Virus record (IMG/VR): IMGVR_UViG_2534682139_000014
Location: 1 to 10,498 of that record
Reading direction: 5' to 3' (one strand)
Source: a virus
Lineage: Duplodnaviria; Heunggongvirae; Uroviricota; Caudoviricetes
Length of the DNA: 10,498 nucleotides
Shown in pieces: positions 1,376 through 1,645 of the stretch. Each line of letters begins with the position of its first letter. Positions within the stretch are counted from its first letter, which is position 1. The translations under genes were made by a program, and so were the position numbers. The notes beneath the pieces are model-generated. The model did not search any database, was not told the origin of the DNA, and worked only from the letters and a program-made list of their open reading frames with translations.

Positions 1376-1645
1376 CTATTTCATTCCGCCAATATTTTCC
1401 CACCTCCCGTCAGCACGCAGGATTTGCAGCGGTCTTACCACACACTGTATCTGCTTTTTATCCGCATCCAGTATCACCACCTGCGTGATTACCCTGGCCT
1501 GCTCCGGGATAATGCCATTCTCATCGGACTCCAGAATGTCTGCCGGTCCCAGTCGCAGCTGTGCTGTAAGCGACTGCACGTGTTCACGGCCATCATGCTT
1601 TCCGCAACCACACAGACGCTGCATAAGTTTTTTTAGTATATTCAT
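1376..1645 (-). CDS. Hypothetical 89-aa protein immediately downstream of, and translationally coupled to, the tail-fibre gene; function unknown
   Basis: ATG at 1645..1643 lies 1 nt after the fibre TGA stop (tgaCatg) with SD AGGAGA 5 nt upstream; stop TAG at 1376-1378, followed by the terminator. The listed 133-aa ORF is an N-terminal over-extension into the fibre gene. Confidence 0.6.
   Translation of the reverse strand: MNILKKLMQRLCGCGKHDGREHVQSLTAQLRLGPADILESDENGIIPEQARVITQVVILDADKKQIQCVVRPLQILRADGRWENIGGMK

Follow-up and report, generated by a model that had tools for sequence, protein, structure and literature searches.

The fibre locus and its downstream gene

The window, i.e. the whole 10,498-nt stretch analysed here (positions 1 to 10,498 of the IMG/VR record IMGVR_UViG_2534682139_000014, Caudoviricetes), carried a lambda-like tail module consisting of the tape-measure C-terminus, M, L, I, J and Lom, followed by the fibre gene. 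This gene (1647-2966, minus strand; the RefSeq start is the ATG at 2960) encoded an EPclA-type collagen-like side tail fibre in which phage_tail_N, Collagen and Phage_fiber_C domains were found, giving the order PfN, coiled coil, collagen and PfC, the same architecture as that of EPclA (Ghosh et al., 2012; PMC3368898). The fibre's own PfC (residues 365-428) lay at 1683-1874 on the minus strand. Immediately downstream was an ORF of 89 aa (1376-1645, minus strand, including the TAG stop), whose translation, MNILKKLMQRLCGCGKHDGREHV...RWENIGGMK, was identical to WP_001023443.1. The ORF sits where lambda has Tfa, as the initial annotation had remarked, and a Tfa homologue was absent from the window. 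The J (tip attachment) gene (3717-7192, minus strand) was split into two ORFs (5012-7192 and 3717-4991), because a T-run around 5021-5024 was 1 nt shorter than in the intact 3477-nt gpJ of NZ_CP027219 (TTTT vs. TTTTT). Either the prophage is defective here or the homopolymer was misread in sequencing.

The fibre and the small ORF were tightly linked. The ATG of the ORF (1643-1645) was separated by the single base 1646 from the fibre TGA (1647-1649), and an AGGAGA Shine-Dalgarno sequence (1651-1656, minus strand) was located within the last fibre codons, 5 nt 5' of the ATG. The junction AGGCAGAACAGGAGAATGACATG was identical in 153 of 161 loci of the IMG/VR pool; in two of the exceptions the upstream sequence was wholly different and an IS was inserted directly upstream of the ORF. 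The translational coupling suggested earlier from the 1-nt gap and the Shine-Dalgarno sequence in the fibre 3' end was upheld. Downstream of the ORF, a GC-rich hairpin at 1337-1364, bordered on opposite sides by an A-run and a T-run, formed a bidirectional intrinsic terminator. Its folding energy was -24.3 kcal/mol (z = -4.2), none of 200 shuffled sequences folded equally well, and the hairpin was also present in related loci. It confirmed that the ORF is the final gene before a bidirectional terminator, which can serve the fibre/ORF operon and, from the other side, the convergent effector gene (499-1251). On the ORF strand, the promoter scan between 1200 and 3100 gave zero promoter-like sites. 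Another terminator-like hairpin with a T-run was observed at 2977-2998 (minus strand) between lom and the fibre gene, so that transcripts of the fibre and the small ORF must either be antiterminated late ones or start at an unrecognised promoter.

Beyond the shared terminator, the gene at 499-1251 (plus strand) encoded an EspF-repeat (TccP/TccP2-like) T3SS effector (PF04806, E=5.5e-109) with 3.4 tandem copies of a 141-bp unit, the repeats spanning 754-1230. A 60-aa ORF at 1-183 (plus strand) was annotated in RefSeq as an internal fragment (pseudogene) of the secretion protein EspV and had no Pfam match.

Family membership and predicted structure

In the initial annotation, the 89-aa protein could not be assigned to a family. 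Profile searches overturned this view. Residues 28-89 (1379-1564, minus strand) matched Pfam PF06820 (Phage_fiber_C, PfC) over profile positions 1-64 of 64 with 121.4 bits and E=2e-35, the gathering cut-off being 25 bits, and the protein aligned to phrog_576 over residues 1-89 of 89 (E=5e-59). RefSeq named the identical WP_001023443.1 'phage tail fiber C-terminal domain-containing protein'; its locus is a prophage adjoining tRNA-Ser and hya in O103, O121 and O26 EHEC strains. In the Pfam/NCBIfam scan at E<=1, PF06820 was the sole family and the Tfa family was unmatched. The C-terminus of the fibre ended in PF06820 too, and the two copies were 32% identical. Instead of closing a prophage tail fibre, the PF06820 domain was free-standing in the small ORF, and the upstream fibre had its own PfC. 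Many members of the family in the databases were likewise proteins of 79-89 aa among the matches listed. The invariant core common to both copies comprised R31, G33, P34, I37, G44, P47, T54, L59, Q74, G80 and W82. The PfC of the EPclA/EPclB fibres (PMC3368898) is the same Pfam domain with the same core; however, ORF and fibre PfC shared only 31-36% identity, and the small protein differed in being free-standing, in having a helix and linker in place of collagen, in lacking an acidic tail and in evolving more slowly.

Homologues of the small protein were found in 933W (L0122), VT1-Sakai (H0003), Sp5 (ORF68, ECs1229), TL-2011c (gp58) and phi24B (gp59). They were 91-100% identical to it and followed a PfC-ending fibre at the same 1-nt junction. 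The podoviral Stx2 phages carry a 645-aa EPclB fibre rather than the 437/439-aa EPclA type of the lambda-like siphoviral prophage studied here, and were otherwise without substantive difference. The gene and its family were thus already known: the gene carries an annotation and has a name in several phage genomes, at least three phage papers mention it, and it has been deleted experimentally once. Our analysis added an estimate of how strong purifying selection is, an orthologue in Salmonella, the observation that the free copy is better conserved than the tip of the fibre, and a backbone boundary placed at the terminator, all of which are described below. An exhaustive HMMER search of 1.84 billion representatives returned 56 matches, nearly all of them fragments of the same E. 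coli family. One long match (P0144, 993 aa with 9 repeats) was discounted because it rested on low-complexity repeats, and the apparently 'divergent' database homologues were mostly frameshifted or truncated copies, so that they were rejected as real diversity.

Single-sequence and profile searches gave no match among solved structures. An AlphaFold2 monomer model built from an 18-sequence alignment was of moderate quality (mean pLDDT 69), and its best fold matches were phage tail fibres. The N-terminal 27 residues (1565-1645, minus strand) were predicted to form a helix (residues 3-12) and a variable linker (13-27), of which residues 13-24 were disordered in the model (pLDDT <50). The PfC part was predicted to be all-beta, with a six-stranded domain at 30-85 (pLDDT ~80). 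The helix was basic and amphipathic, with hydrophobic residues at 3, 4, 7, 8 and 11 and the basic residues K5, K6 and R10. Its motif M-x-I-[LF]-K-K-[LI] was kept in the Salmonella orthologue, while the cysteines were not. In both genera the C-terminal tails of the fibres were acidic (one of them was ...QEVSDDNIQEN). This charge complementarity would fit a docking of the basic N-terminal helix onto the acidic fibre tails, although such a contact is speculative. The L-C-G-C stretch at residues 11-14 was also considered as a bacterial lipoprotein signal and rejected: residues 1-10 (MNILKKLMQR) are charged, without a hydrophobic h-region or signal peptide, and Salmonella P0151 reads LSGG there, without the Cys.

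Selection, synteny and evolution

Selection on the ORF was estimated from 162 pooled IMG/VR loci with 111 distinct nucleotide sequences. The first set comprised the 80 loci closest in protein to the query, a biased sample, and gave a pN/pS of 0.13; after a second query (P0011) was added the value became 0.16. The off-frame values were 2.49 (+1) and 1.22 (+2). Within the ORF, the PfC part had a pN/pS of 0.08 and the N-terminal 27 codons, where the variable sites clustered at residues 19-25, one of 0.36; the last 76 codons of the fibre gave 0.26. The initial annotation had envisaged that a dN/dS near 1 or a lack of conservation would speak against the gene. Neither was seen, since pN/pS was 0.16, the ORF was intact in 161 of the 162 loci and the junction was conserved, all of which indicates a real protein-coding gene. 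No clear covariation between fibre and ORF alleles was detected (Cramer's V 0.1-0.4).

The ORF was consistently associated with PfC-tipped fibres. The ORF was found 3' of a PfC-ending EPclA fibre in 78 of 80 IMG/VR loci, the exceptions being due to IS insertion. In VT1-Sakai it also directly followed a PfC-ending fibre, and in the Stx2-type podovirus TL-2011c it came after the EPclB fibre inside the structural operon, with further tail genes next. A lambdoid prophage of Salmonella enterica had a 468-aa PfN-Pf2-PfC fibre without collagen, followed by a 79-aa orthologue which overlapped the fibre 3' end by 23 nt and had its own AGGAGG. Translation signals were thus kept across two lineages with different junctions (1-nt gap and AGGAGA in E. 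coli, 23-nt overlap and AGGAGG in Salmonella). Taken together, this survey upheld the idea of a conserved partner of the PfC-tipped fibre type. Between E. coli and Salmonella, the PfC parts of the small proteins shared 62% identity and the two fibre PfCs 38%, and ORF and fibre PfC were 31-36% identical; it follows that the duplication is an old one and that the free copy is under the tighter constraint.

ORF and fibre PfC co-occurred in the same 697 of 5426 complete E. coli genomes, at 6818 places for the ORF and 6156 for the fibre PfC, and EHEC genomes had a median of 11 copies. In two loci (L026 and L053, ~2400-3000) an IS66-family element lay directly 5' of the small ORF, replacing the fibre 3' end and leaving the ORF intact. 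Insertions of the IS66 type could be the source of the surplus of ORF copies over fibre PfC copies. In the Salmonella genome GCA_007019015.2 (2888-6240 of that locus), a 452-aa GDSL-lipase-like gene was located between J and the PfN-Pf2-PfC fibre. The 79-aa PfC ORF was followed there by a terminator and by SopA-like and NleG effectors, the same layout of fibre, small ORF, terminator and effector locus as in EHEC.

Nucleotide diversity (pi) was 0.02-0.05 in the ORF and 0.31-0.65 right past the terminator. The ORF is thus the last conserved piece of the backbone before variable cargo and not a moron. The initial annotation had rated a moron of unrelated function as equally possible, but the marks of a moron, i.e. 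its own promoter and terminator, variable presence and a place outside the backbone, were not those of this ORF, which has no promoter of its own, belongs to a conserved backbone block ending at the terminator and stands mid-operon in podoviral Stx2 phages.

Possible roles of the small protein

Collagen-like fibres tipped by PfC occur on most EHEC lambdoid and Stx prophages, with about 11 copies per genome, and the phi24B preprint (10.64898/2026.04.10.717836) named the function of the lateral fibre as an open question. The small protein is the sole invariant companion of these fibres and is more conserved than the fibre tip. Whether or not it binds the fibre bears on how fibres are assembled, and on the host range, in the phages that mobilise Shiga toxin and T3SS effectors.

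Published data on homologues are informative here. Ghosh et al. (2012) showed that the PfC of EPclA is a trimerisation module and renucleates the collagen helix, and recombinant EPclA and its PfC fragment trimerised in E. coli without the small protein (PMC3368898). Mondal et al. (2016) deleted ORF68 of Sp5 in frame, with dedicated primers in their supplement, and listed it with the late genes that Sp5 does not need to form plaques or lysogenise on K-12; the fibre gene ORF67 was essential (PMC5155283). The main text of the phi24B preprint was silent on the small protein among the virion components. However, in the available part of its supplementary peptide table for gradient-purified virions, two peptides unique to the small protein, ADGTWENIGGMK and VITQVVILDADKK, were each listed with 3 PSMs. 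For the C-terminal peptide of the fibre itself the same table gave 47 PSMs, which puts the small protein at ~6% of the fibre by comparable peptides, and a peptide spanning the fibre-ORF junction was not found in the part of the table covered. The authors had searched hypothetical fibre fusions, and one group was marked 'Spike or just gp59?' (10.64898/2026.04.10.717836). In the data covered, this fusion group exceeded the fibre in one gel slice only, a low-molecular-weight slice. As far as these tables go, we infer that the small protein is made, is present in traces in purified virions and is unfused to the fibre; this is our reading and not a claim of the authors. The initial interpretation was upheld in part: the ORF is a conserved partner of the fibre type, while the idea of a stoichiometric partner or chaperone was weakened by the viable Sp5 deletion, by EPclA trimerising alone and by the 3+3 against 47 PSMs.

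We tentatively favour, at slightly less than even weight, that this separately translated PfC paralogue serves PfC-type fibres as an accessory or helps their assembly, in a role that is non-essential and sub-stoichiometric. The ORF encodes a small paralogue of the distal PfC of the fibre, with a predicted basic amphipathic helix, a flexible linker and a beta-domain, and the protein would be made from the late transcript by translation coupled to the end of fibre synthesis. It may form a trimeric knob, as the fibre PfC does. [quoted passage not shown] Against the accessory role we counted the viable Sp5 deletion, the independent trimerisation of EPclA, the trace amount in phi24B virions and the lack of clear allele covariation.

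A different proposal was made by Mondal et al. (2016), who regarded ORF68 as an 'intragenomic reservoir' (PMC5155283). The ORF would then be a silent cassette whose spare PfC is grafted onto the fibre tip by recombination, the free protein having no role. The median of 11 copies per EHEC genome would offer many chances for recombination, and rare database records resembled its products: P0123 was a chimera of the ORF N-terminus and a fibre PfC, and in P0062 (4 members) collagen was joined directly to an ORF-type PfC via an 11-nt microhomology. However, P0062 occupied the extreme end of a 3.3-kb contig, where misassembly is a possible cause, and for these two records, as for P0153, a single frameshift read-through that leads out of the fibre and into the frame of the ORF, both true recombination and artefacts of assembly come into question. 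No full-length fibre with an ORF-type PfC was present among the best 120 of 173 word-index matches (the longest was 131 aa) or among the 56 HMMER representative matches. Furthermore, a silent donor needs no start codon, Shine-Dalgarno sequence or N-terminal 27 codons, yet all of these were conserved (pN/pS 0.36 for the latter), and the ORF PfC varied less than the tip it should diversify (pN/pS 0.08 vs. 0.26; 62% vs. 38% identity between the genera). The Mu G segment (S'/U'), the P1 C segment and the e14 P segment likewise hold a second fibre C-terminal module beside the fibre gene, but the ORF has the orientation of the fibre and its own Shine-Dalgarno sequence and ATG, and it is a single cassette type, which leaves little diversity on offer. 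An invertase or flanking inverted repeats were not found in the window, where the tail-module ORFs scanned matched only tail-protein families. Since peptides of the product were also listed in the available phi24B data, we consider a silent reservoir clearly unlikely.

A fusion of fibre and ORF by a programmed +1 frameshift or stop bypass, giving some fibres two tandem PfC domains, is scarcely credible. In E. coli as in Salmonella the ORF is shifted by +1 against the frame of the fibre, upstream of its start 44 further codons are open, a UGA-C stop beside the SD-like AGGAGA loosely recalls prfB, and the phi24B authors had entered hypothetical fusions in their search database. However, there is no slippery codon, the P-site GAA is unable to re-pair in +1, the Shine-Dalgarno sequence overlaps the P-site codon rather than lying 3 nt upstream, and Mondal et al. 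(2016) found no frameshift signal (PMC5155283). In the part of the phi24B table covered, the normal fibre C-terminal peptide was abundant (47 PSMs) with no junction peptide, and the sole slice with more ORF than fibre-specific peptides was of low molecular weight. A prfB-like +1 frameshift was thus rejected on the junction sequence and the phi24B peptides as far as covered, and the single fused record, P0153, was a one-off frameshift. The position of the gene, its tight coupling and its travelling with one tip type recall lambda Tfa, Mu U (gp50) and P2 G, which also lie directly 3' of the fibre gene, coupled to it, as a module with one tip type. Yet a strictly required Tfa-like assembly chaperone is highly improbable: Pfam at E<=1 yielded PF06820 only, the ORF had no sequence similarity to Tfa/U/G, it is a paralogue of the fibre tip with 89 aa against ~175-194 aa, Sp5 remained infective without ORF68 though the fibre is essential (PMC5155283), and EPclA folds and trimerises alone (PMC3368898). 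A function outside the virion, on the lysogen side or moron-like (exclusion, defence or virulence), would agree with the place of the ORF as last operon gene adjoining an exchangeable effector locus and with its confinement, among the matches listed, to prophages of E. coli, E. albertii, C. rodentium and Salmonella that carry T3SS effectors. It is very unlikely in view of the zero promoter-like sites on the ORF strand (1200-3100), the conserved backbone block and the structural neighbours in podoviruses; moreover, PADLOC returned zero matches for defence, and there is no signal peptide, L-C-G-C lacking an h-region and being lost in Salmonella P0151. Such weight as is left over goes to functions outside this set of readings.

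Returning to the accessory role, a more specific version of it can be drawn, which we regard as possible but rather unlikely. The 89-aa protein would be a new fibre helper replacing Tfa for collagen-like fibres. Its basic helix would dock on the acidic tails of three nascent chains and the protein would template or proof-read the PfC trimer and the collagen register, or else cap the tip and tune adsorption on O-antigen hosts, and then mostly leave. A transient helper of this kind would explain the strong conservation, the coupling, the trace level in virions and the dispensability on K-12.

Fibres with other tips bear on the specificity of such a partnership. PfN fibres whose tips are not PfC were followed by other 3' genes, as with the Stf of PhiR29_2 and its 194-aa Tfa. 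From gene order, the ORF would be a tip-specific partner of PfC fibres, with other tips pairing with other genes, and this was counted in favour of the accessory role. In phage phiSTEC1575-Stx2k, a PfN fibre with a non-PfC tip was followed by an unrelated 99-aa ORF (5637-5936 of that locus), which had no Pfam match and did not resemble the fibre that it follows; this ORF is possibly a further small partner specific to one tip type.
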